Of a stretch of 64,000 nt of DNA, positions 4,838 through 47,251 are shown piece by piece. Position numbers and translations under genes: made by a program. How positions within the stretch are numbered: position 1 is the stretch's first letter; every line of letters begins with the position of its first letter. This DNA is from a virus, in the IMG/VR virus record IMGVR_UViG_3300021962_000035, positions 1 to 64,000 of that record; one strand, given 5' to 3'. The notes under the pieces were generated by a model. That model worked only from the letters and a program-made list of their open reading frames with translations. It was not told the origin of the DNA and ran no database searches.

Positions 4838-6023
4838 AATATGTTTAAATGCTATGGTAGCAAACGAATCCAGAACTATTCTAAGAATGCTGGAATCTTG
4901 CTATCAATATGTGGATTATTGGGTTATCCAGGACAATGGATCTACTGACGGAACACAGGATCTAATCAGAAACTTTTTTGCGGAGAAACAAATACCTGGG
5001 TTTCTTTACGAAACTAAATGGGAATATCCGGGATGGAATAGGGATCATACTTTGCAAACGTGTTTAAAATCAGATCATGGATGTGATTGGATTTTAAGGA
5101 TGGATGCAGATGAACAACTTGTTGTTGATGCTGATTTTGACTGGAACATTTTAAATGATCATTCAATTCAGAGCTTTAATATAACAGCTGATGGCGGGGG
5201 CAGTGTTTACTTCAGAACTTGGTTATGGAATGCAAGACTTCCGTGGTTATTCAAGCATGATAAAAGACACGAGGTAATTCTTTTGCCTGAGTCTGGATCT
5301 AATGACGAAGGATTTCAAAGAGTAAATCTACCTAGATCATTTAGACATATTATAACTAATGATGGACAAACTTGGGCTTCACCAACTAAGTTTTTAAAGG
5401 ATGCTCTGGAGCTAGAATCCGATCAAGTAACAAGCGGTAAAGTATTAGAAGACACATATCATCTTTGGTATATCGGAAAAAGCTATTCTGATTGCTATGA
5501 AGATTCGGATAACTTTCCATTTAAAAGAGCTCACTCAATAGAGTATGCAAGAAGGGCAATATTTTATTTTGAACAGTATCTAAATGTTATGCATGACTGG
5601 GAAAATAAGAAAACTGGGCATTTCCAAAATGAAATGTCCTACCTTGGTATGTGCTTAATAGCTAACGCGTACAGATTTATGGAAGATAAAGAAACTGCAC
5701 TTTTTTATCTTGCGAACGCCGAGCAATTCTGTCCCGAAAGAAATGAACATCTAATGTGGATGACTGAAATTTTTCTATCTATCGGAGACTATGATTCCAT
5801 GCTTGGATGCACCAGAAGATTGACAGATCCTGCTAGAAAAAATCCATTTCCTAATAGATGTTTTCTTTTAACCAATTCTGCTTACCCTGATACCGGAACA
5901 TATGTTCACGATCTTCATAAAATTGCAAATCACAAAAACGAGATAGTAGATGTGATTCCTACGGAAGACATCCAACCAAATAAAGTATTAACATCAGCCC
6001 AAGGGCCTTCATTCTTAAAATAA
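4821..6023 (+). CDS. GT2-like glycosyltransferase with TPR-like helical C-terminus
   Basis: ICLNAMVANE, WVIQDNGSTDGT, WILRMDADE (DxD), HE; helical YL...A repeats ending CPERNEHL. Confidence 0.8.
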   Translation: MLRRSKICLNAMVANESRTILRMLESCYQYVDYWVIQDNGSTDGTQDLIRNFFAEKQIPGFLYETKWEYPGWNRDHTLQTCLKSDHGCDWILRMDADEQLVVDADFDWNILNDHSIQSFNITADGGGSVYFRTWLWNARLPWLFKHDKRHEVILLPESGSNDEGFQRVNLPRSFRHIITNDGQTWASPTKFLKDALELESDQVTSGKVLEDTYHLWYIGKSYSDCYEDSDNFPFKRAHSIEYARRAIFYFEQYLNVMHDWENKKTGHFQNEMSYLGMCLIANAYRFMEDKETALFYLANAEQFCPERNEHLMWMTEIFLSIGDYDSMLGCTRRLTDPARKNPFPNRCFLLTNSAYPDTGTYVHDLHKIANHKNEIVDVIPTEDIQPNKVLTSAQGPSFLK

Positions 6024-8493: not shown

Positions 8494-8501
8494 GATATAT
8501 A
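8494..8501 (+). promoter_or_regulatory. Late promoter GATATATA
   Basis: Upstream of the neck gene. Confidence 0.75.
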
Positions 8502-17119: not shown

Positions 17120-17674
17120 ATGGCAGGATTATCACATTATCAAAATTCATTATCAGCAATAAACAAGTTCGAACCTGTTTACCTGAATCAGTTCGAGGTT
17201 ACCGTTATACCTCCTTCTGCTGTTGCTGGCGGAGAGATCCTACTACAACACGTTACGAAGGTTGGTGGACTTACATTAGACAAAAACCCAGGATTGGTTA
17301 CCCAAAAATATAAGTTTGCTAAAAGGAACTATGCTGGAGCTAAGCCCGATAACACTTATATGGATTTAAGTTTAAGCTTTACCGTCAACTTAAATGATGA
17401 TAACTCAATGTATGTTTTTAAAACATTGAGACAATGGAGTGACTTAATCTACAATCCTTTAACAGGTGCGATGGGACTTAAGAATGATTATACTGGTACT
17501 ATCGTGGTTTCGATTTTTAATAAACAAGGGGACGTTTTCAGAAGAATAACATGCAGAGATTGTTATCCAACTAAAGCCATAAATGAAATGAATCTTAACT
17601 ACACATCAACTGATATATTCAAGATTGATGATATGACATGGGCAGTTGATTACTGGGAGGATTTATTCTTATAA
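17120..17674 (+). CDS. gp19: Tail tube protein, paralog 1 (gp19-like)
   Basis: Follows the sheath; YLNQFEV, F-VNLN, LRQWSDLIYNPLTG, DCYPT, DYWE. Confidence 0.85.
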   Translation: MAGLSHYQNSLSAINKFEPVYLNQFEVTVIPPSAVAGGEILLQHVTKVGGLTLDKNPGLVTQKYKFAKRNYAGAKPDNTYMDLSLSFTVNLNDDNSMYVFKTLRQWSDLIYNPLTGAMGLKNDYTGTIVVSIFNKQGDVFRRITCRDCYPTKAINEMNLNYTSTDIFKIDDMTWAVDYWEDLFL

Positions 17675-17691
17675 AAAAACACAAAAAATAA

Positions 17692-18267
17692 ATGGCAGGT
17701 TTACCACATTTTACAAACTCTAAAGCCGCGATAAACAACTACGAACCGGTTTATCTTAACCAATTCGAGGTTTTGATCAACCCACCTTCGGGTATAGTAG
17801 ATGCTAGCACGACTTTCAAAGGAGAGTCTATTTTAACTCAACAGGTTAAGTCCATTGCTGGATTAACTGTAGACATCTTAGCAAACGGAAACGTTGAACA
17901 AATGTACAAATTTGCTCAAAGAAGATACGCTGCAGGCGAGCCTACAACAACCGATATGACTTTAACTATGGAATTTGAAGTCAACCTAAATGATGCTAAC
18001 TCTATGAGTGTTTATAAGATACTTAGACAATGGAGCGATTTAATCTATAACCCCTTAACTGGAGCAATGGGTATTAAGAGTGATTATGTTGGGTCTATGG
18101 TTATTTCGGTTTTCAGCAAAAGAGGGGATGTTTTCAGAAGAATCAGAATTCCTTCTTGCTTTTTGAGCACAGCTATTAACGATATGCAGTTGGATTACGA
18201 GAATCCTGCTATCTACACAGTATCAGCTTCTTGGATCTGTGATTACTGGGAAGATTTATTCATCTAA
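17692..18267 (+). CDS. gp19: Tail tube protein, paralog 2 (gp19-like)
   Basis: Same motif set as paralog 1 (EPVYLNQFEV, LRQWSDLIYNPLTGAMG, DYWEDLF). Confidence 0.85.
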   Translation: MAGLPHFTNSKAAINNYEPVYLNQFEVLINPPSGIVDASTTFKGESILTQQVKSIAGLTVDILANGNVEQMYKFAQRRYAAGEPTTTDMTLTMEFEVNLNDANSMSVYKILRQWSDLIYNPLTGAMGIKSDYVGSMVISVFSKRGDVFRRIRIPSCFLSTAINDMQLDYENPAIYTVSASWICDYWEDLFI

Positions 18268-26752: not shown

Positions 26753-26760
26753 GATATATA
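26753..26760 (+). promoter_or_regulatory. Late promoter GATATATA
   Basis: Upstream of the 834-aa head protein gene. Confidence 0.75.
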
Positions 26761-26784: not shown

Positions 26785-29289
26785 ATGGATTTTATAAACC
26801 AAGTTAAAAAACTGAAAGAACTAACAAAATCACCAGAGGTTAGACAAATTTGCGAGAGTTATCTTAGCGGATCCTCTGAGATGACCGAATCACAGGTTCT
26901 TGCCGCTCTTAACGAGCAAGCTTCAGCAGAAGCAACACCAGAAATGAAAAGCCACTGGGATTCTATAAAAAATGAGCAAATGGAGGAATCTAAAAAGAGA
27001 GCTTCAGCTTTAATGGAATCTTGGGGAGGTTTAAGAGGCAATGCTTCTTTAAATAATTCTGGTTCTTATATCGGAAACGAAAAGAAAGAAGAAACTAGCA
27101 AATCTCTTTTAGAGAGCCTAAATAACTTAGAAACAAACGACGATAGCACAAGATCTTTCGTTGAAGCTCAGGGACTTAGAAACTTAGGAGTTCTTGAATC
27201 AATCGGAAAAATCAAAGGCCTTTCTATTTACGAATACCCTAAGGTTAAAATCGTTTGTGAGCAGTATGCAAATATCATTGCAAATAAGAGCGTACCAGAA
27301 TTTTCAGTTATTCACAACTTCGTTGCTGAATTAGAATCTTTCAAATGGGACGTTACGGTTTTACCTATCATCGAAAATCTTAAAGAGAAGATTAATAAAT
27401 TCTCGAGAGAAATAGAAGTTTCTAAAGTTTTAGAATCTATTAAACAAAGTGGAAACAACAGTTTCTATTCTGAGCTTAGTGAATCATTAAGCAACTGGCT
27501 AATTTCTGAAAGCAAATCTTCAGGTTTACTTTCTAAAGAAATCTCAAAATGGTCTTTTAATCCAGTTGTTAGAAATTTAATCAATTACTTAAATGTTAAC
27601 GAGGCATCAGATTCTAGAAAATTGGAAATCCCTGTTAATGCTCAAGGAGAATCAAAAGTGGGAAGAATCTACTCACCAATCTTAATCGAGGGAGATAAAA
27701 CTATCTTTGCTATCGGAAATAGCTTATTTGAAGCTCAGGGAGAATCACTAAGAAAATTAAGCACAAAAGAAGTTGGATCTGTACCAGCTGATTATATCAG
27801 TTTGGTTAACTCTGCTCTTAGACCTTATGTTAAGATCAACGAAAACGGAATCTTAATCCAATTAGGAAAGAAATATGTTAGCTTGGTAGAAGAAAATGAA
27901 GGTGTTTCAGTTTACTTAGGTAAATCTAAACTAAACTTCAGAAGCGTAGGAGAATTGGCTAAAGTATTAGGCTTAGAATCTGCTTCACACTTTGCAGTTA
28001 ATGAATCTCAAGTAGTTGGTGATATCATCAATCTTTACGTAAACTTCTCTAACATCGTTGAGTTAGACTTTGCTAAAAATATAACTTCTAATATCTACGA
28101 AGGAGTTTCAGTTAACCTTATTAAATGGAACAGCGAAATTTACCTTCAAAGAATCAACGAAGGTATGAGAGAGAATTCAGTTTATAAAGTAAACGGATCT
28201 CAAGCGGTTAAAATGGTTAAGGATTATTTGAGATATGATATCTCTGAAGGTTTAACTGAATTCTTAGAAGGTGAGCAAAAACTTAAGTCTATCATGATTA
28301 ATGACAGAACTAAAGTACTAGAGAACATTTCTAGAATAGAAGATCAAATCAATAAGGTTGAGGGTCTAATGGAAAACAATCCTTTATATGCTTCTTCAAA
28401 GGAAATGAAATCCGCTCACGCTTTACTTAATAACGAACTTTCAGTATTAAGAGAAAAATGGAATCAGATCAATATTGAATTAAGTAAGATCGAGGATTCA
28501 CCAGAATATGAAACATTGTCTGAAGATGAGAAATTCAATATTGGTGACTATATCAAAGTTAAAGAATCTGGCGAAACTGGAAAGATCATTTCAGTAGATG
28601 CTTCATCAGGAAGATATACAGTTCTTTTGGATACCGGTAAAACTTCAGATTTCCTAGTTAATGAAATCTCTGATCTAGAAGAAGCTTTAAGCCAAGCAGC
28701 AGAAAAGAATTCTGATGATAAAGGAGAAGAGGAAGAAGGCGGAGAAGTTAAAGAGTCAGAAATCTCTAGAACCCTTGAAAAATCTGGTTTAAGCTTAGAG
28801 GAGCAAAAAGCTTTATTAAAAACTTTCTCTGACGGACACGGATTCACTAAAGCACCTAAGGGAGAAGGAGACGAAATCGAGATGGAACTCGATCATATGC
28901 ACGGTTACAATCTTACAGTTAACGAAGCTAAGGCTAAAGCAGATGCTATGGCTAAAGCACCAGGAAACAATAAGAAAGAAAAAGGTAAAGTGGAAGGCGA
29001 AGATGATTTAGCTGAAGGTCCAGAAACTAAGGATAAAACTGAATTTGAGGGTAAAGACGCAGATGGTAAGAACAAAGAAATCGGATACAATCTTAGAGAA
29101 GGAGTAGATGCTAATTTAGTAGAAGCACCGGAAAAAGGTAAAGCTGCTAAGGAGACAAAACATGTAACATCTTTAGATAAATTCATGAATTTAGCGGAAG
29201 CCCCAGGATCAGAAGGTGATATAGATTTCGAAGTAAATGATGAGATGGGTTACAACCTAGACGAATCTGACGATTTAAAAAAAAACTAA
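26785..29289 (+). CDS. Large probable prohead core / internal head protein with KOW/SH3-like domain
   Basis: Late promoter; many L/I/V-x-E motifs; FNIGDYIKVKESGETGKIISVD; C-terminal GYNL and xAEAP repeats. Confidence 0.6.
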   Translation: MDFINQVKKLKELTKSPEVRQICESYLSGSSEMTESQVLAALNEQASAEATPEMKSHWDSIKNEQMEESKKRASALMESWGGLRGNASLNNSGSYIGNEKKEETSKSLLESLNNLETNDDSTRSFVEAQGLRNLGVLESIGKIKGLSIYEYPKVKIVCEQYANIIANKSVPEFSVIHNFVAELESFKWDVTVLPIIENLKEKINKFSREIEVSKVLESIKQSGNNSFYSELSESLSNWLISESKSSGLLSKEISKWSFNPVVRNLINYLNVNEASDSRKLEIPVNAQGESKVGRIYSPILIEGDKTIFAIGNSLFEAQGESLRKLSTKEVGSVPADYISLVNSALRPYVKINENGILIQLGKKYVSLVEENEGVSVYLGKSKLNFRSVGELAKVLGLESASHFAVNESQVVGDIINLYVNFSNIVELDFAKNITSNIYEGVSVNLIKWNSEIYLQRINEGMRENSVYKVNGSQAVKMVKDYLRYDISEGLTEFLEGEQKLKSIMINDRTKVLENISRIEDQINKVEGLMENNPLYASSKEMKSAHALLNNELSVLREKWNQINIELSKIEDSPEYETLSEDEKFNIGDYIKVKESGETGKIISVDASSGRYTVLLDTGKTSDFLVNEISDLEEALSQAAEKNSDDKGEEEEGGEVKESEISRTLEKSGLSLEEQKALLKTFSDGHGFTKAPKGEGDEIEMELDHMHGYNLTVNEAKAKADAMAKAPGNNKKEKGKVEGEDDLAEGPETKDKTEFEGKDADGKNKEIGYNLREGVDANLVEAPEKGKAAKETKHVTSLDKFMNLAEAPGSEGDIDFEVNDEMGYNLDESDDLKKN

Positions 29290-29444
29290 GTCGTAACTTC
29301 TATTTCGCTCCGAAATTTGATAGTCAGAAGACTCCAGGAAAAGAATTTGTTGATTCGTCTGCAGGTAAATTAAGCAAGGCACCAACAGGTAAGGAACAAG
29401 AGGAACAAGAGGAAGAATCTGATTCTAAGGAAGACTCTAAATAA
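29286..29444 (+). CDS. 52-codon -1-frame extension of the 26785 ORF (frameshift product)
   Basis: Open frame LSRNFYFAPKFDSQKTPGKEFVDSSAGKLSKAPTGKEQEEQEEESDSKEDSK* begins at the A9 run, has no start codon, and ends before the terminator. Confidence 0.7.
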   Translation, partial: LSRNFYFAPKFDSQKTPGKEFVDSSAGKLSKAPTGKEQEEQEEESDSKEDSK

Positions 29445-29459
29445 TATAAAAAAATAACT

Positions 29460-29492
29460 GAGAACGTAGTTAAGCTACGTTCTCTTTTTTTT
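29460..29492 (+). terminator. Rho-independent terminator
   Basis: GAGAACGTAG-ttaag-CTACGTTCTC plus T-run. Confidence 0.88.
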
Positions 29493-31042: not shown

Positions 31043-32656
31043 ATGGCCGGTTTTGTAGACAATAATGATCCATCTCAATCCCCTGTTATACAGAGGATCA
31101 GGGAATCAGTGAGGAAACTGAGTACTTTTGGTATGAAGTATGATGACATGGTCATCAGAAATTCACAAGCTGTTGGTGTTACTGAGGCTGCTTTTTTAAA
31201 TAAGAACAAAGCTAATGTAGAGGACGAAAGCATGCTTTGGACCTTAGCAAAGCAGGATATCACAACAAAGCAGTTCATTTCATATTTCGATAAAGACTAT
31301 AAGGGCAAAAGGGATTATCTAAGAAAATTCTCGCTTAATCCCGAGATAGAATGGGTTCTAGATACGATATGTGACGAAGCCATTTCTTACGATCCCGCTA
31401 ATTTCTTTGCATACCCGGATTTCATAGATCTTTCAGACATAAATGAAAAGCTAAAAGAGGATCTTTATGAGAATTATAAAAAGCTTTATGACATCTGGGG
31501 ATTTACCGACGACATTACTGGATGGCAGTACTTTAGACAATTTTTAGTTGACGGATTTTTATGCTTTGAGATAATCTACGATAACGAGGGTAAATATATC
31601 ATAGGATTTAAAGAATTGGATCCTGTTACTATAATACCGAGTGTAGAGAAACAGGTAGACGGAACTTTTGTTAATACCTGGACCCAATTCCCACAAGACC
31701 CGAAAAGGAGAAGAATACTTTACGATCCGCAGATAATCTATATTTCTTATGCTAAAGGAAATGCAATCTCTAGGGTAAGTTATATCGAGAGGCTAATTAG
31801 ACCGTATAACATTCTGAGAATTATAGAATACACTAGAGTTATCTGGTCTGTTATGAATTCATCTTTTAGATTAAAGATGACAGTTCCTATCGGTACTAAA
31901 TCACCTCAAAAGGGTATGCAAACCTTGGGTGAACTTATGAGTATCTATAAGGAGGATGTCCAGCTTAATGATGAGAGCGGGGAATTACTAATTGACGGTA
32001 AACCTAAGATCCAGTTTTATAAAAACTATCTTATGCCCTCTGGTGTTAATGGTACGCCTACCATAGAACCTGTTACCACTGAGGGACCTAATCTAAATGA
32101 TCCTGCACCTTTGTCTTACTTCTTTGATAAGTTCGTGCAAGAATCTAAAGTTCCGCCTTCAAGGTTTCACACTCCAGACGGTGGAAACACTTCTCCATAT
32201 TCAAACGGAGCGGAAGGATTAGATAAGGAAGAAATAAGATTTGCTAAGTTTGTAGAAAGACTTAGATCAATTTTCCAGGAGATATTAACAAAGCCACTTT
32301 GGATTCAAATGGCTAAAAAATATCCTAACCTGGAGAAGGACTTCTTATTTAAGAGCCAATTGGGACTAGATTATTTCTCTGATAATCCATTTAAGATCAA
32401 TCAGGAGATGGATATTATTAATAAAAGGAAAGAATCCGTTACTGCTATGACAGGATTACTCGGAGACGAAGAGAAGCCATATTTCTCTACCGCTTTCCTT
32501 ATTGAGACTTTCCTTGGTATGTCCAGACAGGATATAATAGCAAATAAGGAAGCCATGGAGAGAAAAGCTAAGGAGAAGGAAAAAGCAGAGAAGAAAGAAG
32601 GCGGGGAAGAAGGCGGGGAAGAAAAAGAAGGGGAAGCACCAGAAGTAACACTATAA
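31043..32656 (+). CDS. gp20: Portal protein, paralog A (T4 gp20-like)
   Basis: YFRQFLVDGFLCFEII, SYIERLIRPYNILRIIE, KVPPSRF, EEIRFAKFVERLRSIF. Confidence 0.93.
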   Translation: MAGFVDNNDPSQSPVIQRIRESVRKLSTFGMKYDDMVIRNSQAVGVTEAAFLNKNKANVEDESMLWTLAKQDITTKQFISYFDKDYKGKRDYLRKFSLNPEIEWVLDTICDEAISYDPANFFAYPDFIDLSDINEKLKEDLYENYKKLYDIWGFTDDITGWQYFRQFLVDGFLCFEIIYDNEGKYIIGFKELDPVTIIPSVEKQVDGTFVNTWTQFPQDPKRRRILYDPQIIYISYAKGNAISRVSYIERLIRPYNILRIIEYTRVIWSVMNSSFRLKMTVPIGTKSPQKGMQTLGELMSIYKEDVQLNDESGELLIDGKPKIQFYKNYLMPSGVNGTPTIEPVTTEGPNLNDPAPLSYFFDKFVQESKVPPSRFHTPDGGNTSPYSNGAEGLDKEEIRFAKFVERLRSIFQEILTKPLWIQMAKKYPNLEKDFLFKSQLGLDYFSDNPFKINQEMDIINKRKESVTAMTGLLGDEEKPYFSTAFLIETFLGMSRQDIIANKEAMERKAKEKEKAEKKEGGEEGGEEKEGEAPEVTL

Positions 32657-32665
32657 AAATAAGAG

Positions 32666-34291
32666 ATGGCAGGATTTTTAGATTTTTTAAGACCTAACGA
32701 GTCAGCTTTAGGTAACATACTGAGAAGCCTTGGTAAAGTATCCAAGTTCGGTATGCAGTATGATGACATGGTCGTTAGAAATTCTCAGGCCGTAGGTAAA
32801 ACAGAAAGTTATTTCTTTAATCAGCAAGGAACTGGATTTACCCAGGATGACGCTTTTTACTGGACAGCTTCTTACCAGGATACCAAGGTAAGAAAATACA
32901 TCGCATACTTCGATAAGGACTATGTAGAAAAAAGAAACTTCTTAAGAAAATTTTCACTAAATGGAGAAATTGAATTTATTATTGATACGATTACAGACGA
33001 ATCTATCACTTATGACGATAGAAATTATTTTGCTAATCCTTCTTTCCTTAATTTAGATCTAAAGGAGAAGGTATTAAATAAGATATCTCTACATTATAAT
33101 AGGCTGTACAATATATTTGGGTTCCAAAATTCCGTACTTGCTTGGCAGTATTTCAAACAATTTTTAATTGACGGATTTCTCGCATTTGAGATTATCTATG
33201 ACAACAAAGGAAAAGAGATAATCGGATTTAAAGAGCTTGATCCATCTTCTCTACAACCCGCTGTTGAAAAGATAGGGGAAAATGAATACCAACAATTTTG
33301 GATTCAGTATCCAAAAAATCCTCAAATGACTAGGAAACTAACAAATGAGCAAATCATTTATATTTCTTATGCTAAGGGTAATAGCGTATCTAGGGTTAGC
33401 TATATAGAAAGACTCGTTAGATCCTACAACATTCTAAGAATCATGGAGAATTCCAGAATCATCTGGAATGTTATGAATGCTTCTTATAGATTGAAGTTTA
33501 TTATTCCTACTGGTAGCCAATCTCCTCAAAAAGCTATGCAGACTTTAGGCCAGCTAATGTCTAACTACAAGGAGGATATTACCATTAATGACGCTTCAGG
33601 TGAATTAACGGTAAATGGAAGACCTAAGGTTCAGTTTTATAAAAACTATCTATTTCCTGAACAGAATGGTCAATCACCTCAGATAGAATCATTAAATCCT
33701 AATGGTCCGGATTTTAATGTTATGGATAATGTTCTTTATTTCTATAACAAGTTAAAAATGGATTCCAAAATACCTTATGCTAGATTTGCTTCAAGGGCTG
33801 CTGGTCCTGTTAATTATCAGATAGGTATAGATCAGTTGGAAAGAGACGAGATAAGGTTTGAGAAATTCCTAAGAAGATTAAGATCTATTTTCCAGGAGAT
33901 ACTTGTCAAGCCCCTTTATATTCAAATGTGCTTAGATTTTCCTGAGTTGTCAAGAGATAGAAGCTTTAAAGCAAATCTGGGATTGGATTTTCACAGAGAA
34001 AGTGAGTTTGAAGAAATGGTTCAACTTACCAACTTTACTAAGAGAAGCGAATTCATAAAAGGCTTAGGCGAGCTTAAAGTTAAGGTCGGAGAGGAAGAGA
34101 AAGCATACTTTGATAATGATTATCTTATACAAAGATTCCTTGGGTTAACTCCGGATCAAATAGCTACAAACGAAAGCTATTTGAAAAAAGAAGCAAAAGC
34201 TGCTCCTAAGAAAGAGGAAGGCGGAGCTGAAGGCGAGGCCGCTCCAGCGGAGGGCGAGGGCGAAGGAGAAGCTCCGGAGGTAACTCTATAA
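32666..34291 (+). CDS. gp20: Portal protein, paralog B (T4 gp20-like)
   Basis: YFKQFLIDGFLAFEII, SYIERLVRSYNILRIME, KIPYARF, DEIRFEKFLRRLRSIF. Confidence 0.93.
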   Translation: MAGFLDFLRPNESALGNILRSLGKVSKFGMQYDDMVVRNSQAVGKTESYFFNQQGTGFTQDDAFYWTASYQDTKVRKYIAYFDKDYVEKRNFLRKFSLNGEIEFIIDTITDESITYDDRNYFANPSFLNLDLKEKVLNKISLHYNRLYNIFGFQNSVLAWQYFKQFLIDGFLAFEIIYDNKGKEIIGFKELDPSSLQPAVEKIGENEYQQFWIQYPKNPQMTRKLTNEQIIYISYAKGNSVSRVSYIERLVRSYNILRIMENSRIIWNVMNASYRLKFIIPTGSQSPQKAMQTLGQLMSNYKEDITINDASGELTVNGRPKVQFYKNYLFPEQNGQSPQIESLNPNGPDFNVMDNVLYFYNKLKMDSKIPYARFASRAAGPVNYQIGIDQLERDEIRFEKFLRRLRSIFQEILVKPLYIQMCLDFPELSRDRSFKANLGLDFHRESEFEEMVQLTNFTKRSEFIKGLGELKVKVGEEEKAYFDNDYLIQRFLGLTPDQIATNESYLKKEAKAAPKKEEGGAEGEAAPAEGEGEGEAPEVTL

Positions 34292-45289: not shown

Positions 45290-47251
45290 ATGCCACAACT
45301 ACAATCATTAAACGAAAATATGGTATTCATCCTTGAGAGACAGAATTCCATACTAGAAGCGAAAAAGTCAGAATCTGACGATTACGTTCTAGAAGGTATT
45401 GCTGCTGTTTTCGGACAAGAGAACAACAACAATAGAATATACGAGGAGAAGGAATATTTACCGCACCTTGAATATTTGAAGGATAAGATCTCACAGAATA
45501 GACTGGTTGGTGAATTAGATCACCCAGAGAAATTCGATGTGTCTCTTAAGAACATCTCTCACATCATAACAGATCTTAACTACGATAAAGGTAACAGAGA
45601 GCTTAAGATTAAGGTTAAACTTTTAGATACCCCAGCGGGTAGAATAGCTAAGAACTTAGTTGATGCTGGAGTTCCTCTTTCTATTTCTTCAAGAGCAGCT
45701 GGTTCAGTAGGTAATGATAAAAAGGTGGCAATTAAGAAAATTTTTACTTACGATCTAGTAGCTGATCCTGGATTTAAGGACGCACAACTTGAAAGAGTGT
45801 ATGAAAGCCAAGGGTTTACATCTCAAGAATTCGAAGCAATGAAAAATAATAGCATATTAAATAGCTTAGAATGCTTAAATGAATCTTTAGGTATCGAAAA
45901 AGAATCTTCACTTAAGATATATAAAGTTGAAAATAACGAAGAATTCAACAAAATCGTGAATAAATCAGATAATAAAAATAAATCAGTCCTTATGGAGAAC
46001 AATGAATTTGTTACTGCGGAGGAGCTTAATCAGTATTCAGTCTTCTTGAAAAAAGAGATGGATTCGATGAAAGCCGCTATCGCAGAGGCTAAAAATCAAA
46101 AAGCATCGCTAACTGAATCTGAAGATTTAAGTAAAGCTAATGAAGCTCTTGAAGAAAGAGTTGCTAAGCTTGAAAAATATTCAGAGTATTTAGCTGAGAA
46201 TCTAGAAAATTCTATTAAATACGGTGAGTATTTAGCAGAAAACTTGGACAGCACTATCAACTACAGTAAATATTTAGCAGAAAACTTAGACAAGAATATT
46301 TCTTATTCTAAGTACTTAGCTGAAAACGTAGATAAGTCTATCTCTTATTCCGAGTATGTTGCTGAAAGCGTTGACAAGAACATCGAGTACTCTAAATACT
46401 TAGCAGAAAAATTGGATCAAAATATTCAATACTCAGAGTACTTAGCAGAAAACGTAGATAAAGGAATCGCTTATTCTGAATATCTTGGAGAAAACTTAGA
46501 TAAAGGAATCGCTTATACTGAATACGTTGCTGAAAAACTAAACAACGGAATCGAATACACTGAATACGTTGCTGAGAATTTAAACAAGGGCATCGAGTAC
46601 TCTGACTATCTTGCAGAGAACTTAAATAAAGGATTAGACTATTCTGAGTATCTTGCAGAGAAATTAAACAGAGGAATTGCTTATAGCGAATACATCGCTG
46701 AGTCAGTTTCTACTAAAATTCCATCTAATGGTACTGGAGTATTAAAAGAGAGTGTAAATCTATCTGCAGAAGCAGGTCTTAATGAATCTGGCTTTGCTGG
46801 AAACTATGATAACCTAACTTCACAGATTGATTCATTAATAGAATCGGTTAAGACACAAAAAACCGCTTCAAACATCAACGAAGCTGCTAAAGCAGTAAAC
46901 CCAGCCGAAACACAGAAGGCTAACGAAACAGCTCTTAACGAGTCAGAGAACACAACTAAAACAGGTCTTAAGTTTATTGACGAAATGCCAGCAGAATATG
47001 CTCCGGTATGGGAATCTTTATCAGAAGGACACCAAGCATCTATTGTTGCTCAGTCACACTTCTATAATTTAGATACCCCTTATCAGATCAAAAATTTCTG
47101 GTCAACTCGTCAGCTTGGAGCTAAACCAGTTGGAGTACAAAAACTTGACGAGAGTGAAAATGTAGCCGAGACTGCAAAAACACAAGCATATTCTTCAGAT
47201 TACATGAATTATATCGCTTCTGCACTTGAGCAAAAATTTCAAAAAAGATAA
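45290..47251 (+). CDS. gp21: Prohead protease (gp21-like) fused to scaffold (gp22-like)
   Basis: Catalytic motifs GELDHP, SISSRAAGSV, YDLVADPGF; long coiled-coil repeat C-terminus; precedes the MCP gene. Confidence 0.9.
   Translation: MPQLQSLNENMVFILERQNSILEAKKSESDDYVLEGIAAVFGQENNNNRIYEEKEYLPHLEYLKDKISQNRLVGELDHPEKFDVSLKNISHIITDLNYDKGNRELKIKVKLLDTPAGRIAKNLVDAGVPLSISSRAAGSVGNDKKVAIKKIFTYDLVADPGFKDAQLERVYESQGFTSQEFEAMKNNSILNSLECLNESLGIEKESSLKIYKVENNEEFNKIVNKSDNKNKSVLMENNEFVTAEELNQYSVFLKKEMDSMKAAIAEAKNQKASLTESEDLSKANEALEERVAKLEKYSEYLAENLENSIKYGEYLAENLDSTINYSKYLAENLDKNISYSKYLAENVDKSISYSEYVAESVDKNIEYSKYLAEKLDQNIQYSEYLAENVDKGIAYSEYLGENLDKGIAYTEYVAEKLNNGIEYTEYVAENLNKGIEYSDYLAENLNKGLDYSEYLAEKLNRGIAYSEYIAESVSTKIPSNGTGVLKESVNLSAEAGLNESGFAGNYDNLTSQIDSLIESVKTQKTASNINEAAKAVNPAETQKANETALNESENTTKTGLKFIDEMPAEYAPVWESLSEGHQASIVAQSHFYNLDTPYQIKNFWSTRQLGAKPVGVQKLDESENVAETAKTQAYSSDYMNYIASALEQKFQKR
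45916..45923 (+). promoter_or_regulatory. Internal late promoter GATATATA
   Basis: Inside the protease gene, 68 nt before the in-frame ATG 45992. Confidence 0.55.
46163..46708 (+). repeat. 13 imperfect copies of a 14-aa (42-nt) repeat, approx. DKGIxYSEYLAENL
   Basis: Read directly from the translation of the scaffold region. Confidence 0.9.

Follow-up and report, generated by a model that had tools for sequence, protein, structure and literature searches.

A conserved nine-adenine run followed by a start-less -1-frame extension in a late gene family of aquatic T4-like phages: a very probable slippage site

In this work, we describe a putative recoding site at the 3' end of a late gene from a T4-like aquatic phage that has not been cultured. 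The gene lies in a 64,000-nucleotide (nt) stretch of viral DNA, hereafter called the window, which comprises positions 1 to 64,000 of the IMG/VR virus record IMGVR_UViG_3300021962_000035. Its open reading frame (ORF), P0001, encodes a protein of 834 amino acids (aa) and ends with a run of nine adenines (A9), one further base and a stop codon, beyond which the -1 frame remains open for 52 codons. We consider it very likely that this extension is expressed through slippage on the A9 run and, with modest confidence, we favor RNA polymerase as the enzyme that would slip; polymerase and ribosome may both contribute. Standard decoding would give the 834-aa protein ending in ...LKKN, while a one-base backward frame change within the run would give a predicted long isoform of 886 aa, that is, 52 residues longer, with two more alanine-proline (AP) motifs and an acidic tail. 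We infer that the two isoforms would be produced at a fixed ratio. The mechanism is of a known kind; what is new is a widespread phage gene family that carries it.

The end of the gene is built as the original prediction described it. The zero frame closes with TTA AAA AAA AAC TAA, in which the overlapping heptamers T_TTA_AAA, A_AAA_AAA and A_AAA_AAC all stand in the zero-frame phase. From position 29271 on, the -1 frame is open; the 52 codons of the extension occupy 29286-29441, followed by TAA at 29442-29444; the hairpin of an intrinsic terminator begins 15 nt past this stop. No ORF with its own ATG, GTG or TTG start was found in the -1 frame of the extension, which is reachable only via a frame change within the 19 nt from the -1-frame stop at 29268-29270 to the zero-frame stop. 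The claim that the extension repeats a motif of the protein's C-terminus also holds. The 834-aa protein contains only five [AG]P dipeptides, all of them within phi-x-x-[AG]-P motifs in the tail (residues 690-807), and two further phi-x-x-[AG]-P motifs, FYFAPK and LSKAPTGK, are located in the extension.

By itself, the window is no more than a mild oddity. The A9 run is the sole homopolymer of at least nine bases in the 121.8-kb genome, where runs of 6, 7, 8 and 9 bases number 128, 30, 7 and 1, and a single A9 is approximately what the decay of run lengths in this genome leads one to expect. On the antisense strand, which is mostly non-coding, 3.9% of stop-to-stop stretches reach 52 codons, a frequency that leaves room for a -1 frame open by chance, with the tail being a non-coding spacer before the terminator. 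It is conservation that lifts the arrangement beyond chance: of the 75 related loci, 66 share the A-run, the stop and an open -1 frame, and across the 43 distinct extension sequences no frame but this one is open in every case.

The 834-aa protein has more than 300 relatives in the database. One hundred IMG/VR loci were fetched, and the analyzed set consisted of the window together with those 74 of 80 second-scan loci whose gene end is present on the contig (n = 75; 42-90% protein identity to the window protein). Where the gene ends in this way, with one base and a stop behind the A-run (66 loci), the open stretch of the -1 frame measures 50-61 codons, or 77 in a single case. All but one of these loci read NNA AAA AAA AA[C/G] and then a stop, the remaining one (L056) having ten adenines (A10) directly followed by TAA. 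TAA, TAG and TGA each occur after the run, which means that what is conserved is the function of a stop and not a particular codon. Nearly all full-length relatives end in ...[LV]KKN or ...KKK, and the stretch just before is variable. Thus, the suggestion that homologues would share the A-run, the stop and a -1 ORF was borne out, with a conserved peptide kept down to 42% identity. In locus L036 (4886-5120), the usual stop of the extension has been lost, and the -1 frame stays open as far as the terminator region, over 77 codons in all.

The peptide encoded by the -1 frame follows the pattern (L/V)SRNFYFAPK ... GKLSKAPTGK ... acidic tail in the nearer clades and ...VWxFAPTG ... KMSVAPDGK ... 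acidic tail in the most distant one. Variation among relatives is concentrated at third positions of -1-frame codons, with 87, 64 and 126 extra states at positions 1, 2 and 3 in one clade and 43, 28 and 89 in another. A strain that is 98.8% identical differs from the window at five sites in the extension, all of them at third positions of the -1 frame and all synonymous; two of the five recur as variants in sequencing run X8. None of the other frames is open throughout the 43 distinct extension sequences, the three antisense frames being open in 2, 4 and 0 of them, respectively. This substitution pattern indicates that the extension is coding and under purifying selection. A frame open by chance is hard to reconcile with motifs conserved at such distances, with the excess of third-position changes, or with the occurrence of the same peptide as an in-frame fusion in some relatives; this explanation, to which we give hardly any credence, is refuted by the comparative data.

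To place the site in the history of the family, 55 distinct proteins were arranged in a quick maximum-likelihood tree with a midpoint root and support from the Shimodaira-Hasegawa-like approximate likelihood ratio test (SH-aLRT). The form with A9, one base and a stop is found in 49 of the 55 proteins, and the run-plus-stop layout is present on both sides of the deepest split. Apart from L056, all exceptions belong to one derived clade, in which four forms were distinguished. In L051, the phase of the A9 differs (GAA AAA AAA ACC), and the zero frame reaches its stop 12 codons later. In L054 and L055, A10 is followed by GCT TAA. In L058, L059 and L068, and in the proteins P0121 and P0122, an extra C brings the extension into frame (TCA AAA AAA AAC CCC AGT) while the A9 is retained; this fused form is present in 12-13 contigs of up to 338 kb and carries the same extension peptide, and a slip on its run would now truncate the protein after ...KKKPQS. 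In L060, L061 and L064, the gene is split (around 5294-5560): the main ORF is cut short by a double stop after ...NNEE, and the extension forms a separate ORF with its own ATG and approximately 20 extra N-terminal residues, with the A9 still in frame. The run, at 9-10 adenines, is therefore retained even in clades that do not need it to reach the extension, which fits selection for two forms of the product and not for mere access to the tail. A second A9 was noted in one clade (L046, L051, L052, L054 and L058), at position 2485, where it lies in the 5' leader and is separated by 7 nt from the start codon of the same gene.

Homopolymers are error-prone, and a single missing adenine would make two frames out of one. 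In that case, or if the tail were pseudogenised by a recent frameshift mutation, the true gene would be a continuous 886-aa ORF, such as is found in the derived clade and in two short contigs, L103 and L104. This explanation does not agree with the fact that 65 loci, which come from dozens of metagenomes and lie to either side of the deepest split, share the A9, the stop and the shifted frame, nor with the continuous clade, which is fused by an extra C and not by an extra A. Independent runs also agree on the length of the run. A separate contig from the riverine DNA run X8 covers 28800-29392 and reads A9 with 0 differences and 0 gaps, and a contig from the metatranscriptomic-library run X15 covers 29245-29400 and reads A9 with 0 differences and 0 gaps at a depth of 2.5; both are consensus contigs (Logan), in which minor A10 molecules would be invisible. 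The A9 is not an assembly error, a possibility that the original prediction had itself raised, and the explanation by error or pseudogenisation, now of very slight probability, is effectively refuted.

A different DNA-level explanation is phase variation, in which replication slippage would generate sub-populations of A9 and A10 genomes, each producing one isoform. Homopolymers of this length are mutable, and L103 and L104, which come from other samples and DNA-type assemblies, read A10 (at positions 1184 and 855, respectively) with the extension in frame; L103 is 98.8% identical to the window. These contigs are only 1.4-1.5 kb long and of low coverage (about 1.7x in one of them), and their 5' parts could not be aligned. 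Their A10 could be a sequencing error, a rare genomic variant or RNA-derived sequence; we also considered them as captured slipped transcripts, but the unalignable 5' parts and the 1.7x coverage leave this ambiguous. Searching the literature by accession returned nothing on them. Against phase variation, A9 is the consensus in 65 loci of many samples and in the DNA runs over the window, and in the loci with a stable A10 consensus (L054/L055 and L056), the layout still calls for a -1 shift. We regard phase variation as highly unlikely.

Slippage by RNA polymerase would account for the length of the run. Bacterial RNA polymerase slips efficiently on runs of nine A or T, and the RNA:DNA hybrid of the Thermus thermophilus enzyme spans 9-10 bp, a 9-nt run being exploited for slippage in the dnaX gene of this organism (PMC5009743). 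On a homopolymer of nine nucleotides, the whole hybrid could re-pair after a slip, and a fraction of the transcripts would gain one adenine; ordinary translation of such A10 transcripts would produce ...LKKK-LSRNFYF.... In the 75 loci, the run never falls below nine adenines, even though a slippery heptamer requires just six. The codon preceding the two lysine codons is always NNA (TTA, GTA, TCA or CTA), while in the codon usage of the genome A-ending codons account for 0.22-0.50 of those for leucine, valine and serine, and AAA for 0.61 of those for lysine. When the relatives are pooled, A-runs of length 5, 6, 7, 8, 9 and 10 number 1477, 761, 274, 64, 80 and 6, and the jump at length 9 is due to the recoding site.

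Elements that would assist a ribosome were also sought. RNAalifold predicted 0 pairs downstream of the run in 11 diverse loci, the single-sequence z-score was -0.34, and no Shine-Dalgarno-like or other conserved nucleotide element was found upstream, where codons vary freely among the loci. In the fold of the window sequence by itself, the A-run is enclosed by a hairpin, which was dropped for lack of conservation among the relatives. The distribution of -1-extension lengths over all genes was likewise set aside because it is confounded by overlapping next genes. ARAGORN found no tRNA genes on the 121,823-bp contig (G000), so that tRNA-Lys content is of no help in telling the mechanisms apart. 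The lack of conserved downstream structure, a run never shorter than nine and the ability of the run to change phase are among the reasons why we favor the polymerase.

In the main rival explanation, it is the ribosome that would shift by -1, in a programmed event at A_AAA_AAC, A_AAA_AAG or A_AAA_AAA, with the neighboring stop codon as stimulator and a homogeneous A9 mRNA as template. It would yield the same two isoforms, with the junction ...KKN-LSR... if the shift took place with Asn-tRNA in the A site, so that residue 834 of the long form would be K or N depending on the mechanism. Heptamers in the proper phase are present, the -1 ORF without a start codon is conserved, and the natural in-frame fusions read KKN-PSR, retaining the asparagine. 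A stop directly 3' of the site, whichever of the three it is, is a known, if weaker, stimulator, and dnaX genes have been described in which tau is made by frameshifting and the stop of gamma lies directly after the site. Several clades carry A_AAA_AAG, the most shift-prone heptamer in E. coli, whereas A_AAA_AAC and A_AAA_AAA are far less shifty there (PMC5009743), and the window itself has the weakly shifty A_AAA_AAC. Ribosomal frameshifting does not readily explain the absence of a conserved hairpin, pseudoknot or upstream element, nor three adenines beyond what the heptamer needs, an invariant A at the preceding wobble position, or the maintenance of the A9 in fused and split clades in which no shift is needed; moreover, the stop is not adjacent to the run in L051 and L054. 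We judge this mechanism to be possible rather than probable.

Several points nevertheless weigh against polymerase slippage. Ribosomal 'shifty stop' frameshifting would explain at least equally well why 66 of 75 loci have a stop immediately behind the run and why some clades carry the classic A_AAA_AAG, and because an A9 contains an in-phase A_AAA_AAA in every phase, the phase-shifted variant is compatible with the ribosome too. The one RNA-library contig (X15, a consensus of depth 2.5) reads A9 and not A10, while the A10 of the DNA-type contigs L103 and L104 means that length heterogeneity at the DNA level, or arising from sequencing, may exist. Finally, both isoforms are predicted from sequence alone.

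The gene appears to be expressed late in infection. An 8-nt motif, GATATATA, occurs 13 times in the window compared with 4.8 expected, always on the + strand; its sites, for example at 8494, 13682, 26753, 30977, 45254 and 49085, lie 25-70 nt before late or structural genes, and those for the sheath, the portal and the protease-scaffold are among the genes that it precedes. We regard it as a candidate for a late promoter, comparable to the T4 element TATAAATA. With GATATATA before the start codon and the terminator after the extension, the unit looks like a monocistronic late transcript that would include the extension. The features of this unit are listed in Table 1.

Table 1. Features of the gene and its putative recoding site (coordinates in the window).
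Feature	Position	Strand	Remarks
Zero-frame ORF P0001, predicted short isoform	26785-29289	+	834 aa; end GAT TTA AAA AAA AAC TAA
A9 run, proposed slippage site	29277-29285	+	9-10 A's in 75/75 related loci, whatever the architecture
Zero-frame stop TAA	29287-29289	+	Directly 3' of the A9; TAA, TAG or TGA in relatives
-1-frame extension, 52 codons and TAA	29286-29444	+	NFYFAPK, KLSKAPTGK, acidic tail
Intrinsic terminator	29460-29492	+	11-bp stem (hairpin 29460-29484), T8 tail
GATATATA, late-promoter-like motif	26753-26760	+	25 nt before the start codon

The N-terminal part of the protein, approximately 640 aa long, is structured and includes a putative SH3-like domain; the remainder is an acidic tail that is disordered. 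Pfam gives a single, sub-threshold SH3-like match at residues 586-619, and searches of PHROGs and of PDB profiles with the 834-aa protein returned no match. The AlphaFold model has a predicted local distance difference test score (pLDDT) of 62.5, is confident only for parts of residues 1-570 and is disordered from residue 686; Foldseek found no match for it in PDB at E <=0.001, its structural matches in BFVD are uncharacterised phage proteins only (including one of Tenacibaculum phage PTm1), and the best score in the ESM Atlas was 0.79 (a viral cluster). Megablast against phage records gave no match, and tblastn against them reached distant Lak phages and LR756500 only, which have neither the disordered tail nor the A-run and therefore do not bear on the site. 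The original prediction called the product a head protein, a label that no family or fold match upholds; the two features that speak for it are the late-promoter-like motif and an invariant N-terminus, MDFINQVKKLKE, which is capsid-targeting-like.

An association with the virion is nevertheless hinted at by these two features taken together with an invariant HGYN...NE site before the tail and a peptidoglycan-binding insertion. The latter is a PG_binding_1 domain (E 1.4e-13) at residues 122-172 of P0121, in the L058/L059 clade, and it sits in a loop that is disordered in the window protein. Such an insertion hints that the protein meets the cell wall. The long form would have an acidic end and further copies of phi-x-x-[AG]-P, be this a binding motif or a cleavage site, and the extension may thus serve to add copies of a short docking or cleavage motif to a probably virion-associated protein. 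A broader proposal would see in the A9 a dosage switch that acts at the level of transcription, to which this group of aquatic T4-like and jumbo phages would resort time and again, and which here sets the stoichiometry of a capsid-targeted peptide module, the AP tail and extension being clipped by a gp21-type prohead protease behind HGYN...NE and acting in the head or at ejection. The split clade lends it some support, as the separate extension peptide there has its own start and an N-terminus, MSSNKILDFFSYINE, that resembles the capsid-targeting-like tags of other late proteins. We put this proposal forward as speculation and think it rather unlikely to be correct as a whole.

The surroundings of the gene are those of a T4-like genome. 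A gp55-like late sigma factor and homologues of gp4 and gp2 are encoded, as are a prohead protease of the gp21 type and gp23. Upstream of the gene lie a weak candidate for the tape measure and the sheath and tube proteins, and just downstream of it are two homologues of the gp20 portal. Both portal genes (31043-32656 and 32666-34291) are intact, stand in tandem and belong to the T4 gp20 family (E 7e-59 and 9e-67). The tail-tube-like genes are likewise duplicated, with two adjacent paralogues (17120-17674 and 17692-18267) assigned to the same PHROG (32623), and the sheath gene upstream of them is unusually long (1117 aa). A 653-aa protein (45290-47251), preceded by GATATATA, matches Peptidase_S77 (gp21-type) at residues 33-144 only and continues with a long C-terminal part; it may represent a fusion of protease and scaffold. 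The contig has a GC content of 37%, and all long ORFs of the window lie on one strand.

The site would represent natural recoding in phage late genes, outside the tail-chaperone paradigm, in a family whose core has diverged to 42% identity. The extension is missed by gene callers in hundreds of database entries, and for annotation, the predicted 886-aa product should be recorded beside the 834-aa one. The family offers four natural states: a shift is required; the extension is fused and the run kept; the run stands in another phase; or the gene is split into two ORFs. Such a series provides a system in which to ask whether the polymerase or the ribosome slips, and why the isoform ratio matters. 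Bacteroidota-type hosts largely lack Shine-Dalgarno-based signals, and the question of polymerase versus ribosome bears on hosts of this type.

No report of this recoding site was found in a literature search, and several known systems resemble it. In phages, C-terminally extended minor isoforms arise from frame changes a few codons before the stop in gene 10A/10B of T7 and T3 and in the capsid and tail genes of Listeria phages PSA and A118. The 10B extension of T7 is approximately 50 residues long. These 3'-end frameshifts (reviewed in PMC5009743) are ribosomal, take place at non-homopolymeric sites and concern known structural proteins, whereas the site described here is a homopolymer. A Lys-codon slippery heptamer is shared with E. 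coli dnaX, where -1 ribosomal frameshifting occurs on A_AAA_AAG, but the Shine-Dalgarno-like element upstream and the stem-loop downstream of that site have no conserved counterpart here. Closer in layout are the 'two-ORF' dnaX genes, in which the long product needs a shift and the stop of the short product lies directly after the site. An A or T run likewise causes part of the product to be extended at its C-terminus in Shigella spa13 and mxiE and in the transposases of insertion-sequence elements (PMC5009743), although these are other genes in other hosts, and some of them need nascent-RNA hairpins.

Among the most similar systems is dnaX (tau/gamma) of Thermus thermophilus, which, like the gene described here, combines nine identical bases with the absence of a stimulatory structure, has stops nearby in the other frames and gives two isoforms with a common N-terminus (PMC5009743). 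It differs in that the gene in question here is a phage late gene and not a clamp loader, and in that slippage is in our case predicted from the sequence. The polarity is also reversed in the window and in most of its relatives, where a slip is needed for the long form. In the derived in-frame clade, by contrast, the A9 is kept and a slip would lead to ...KKKPQS and a stop, which is exactly the polarity of Thermus dnaX.

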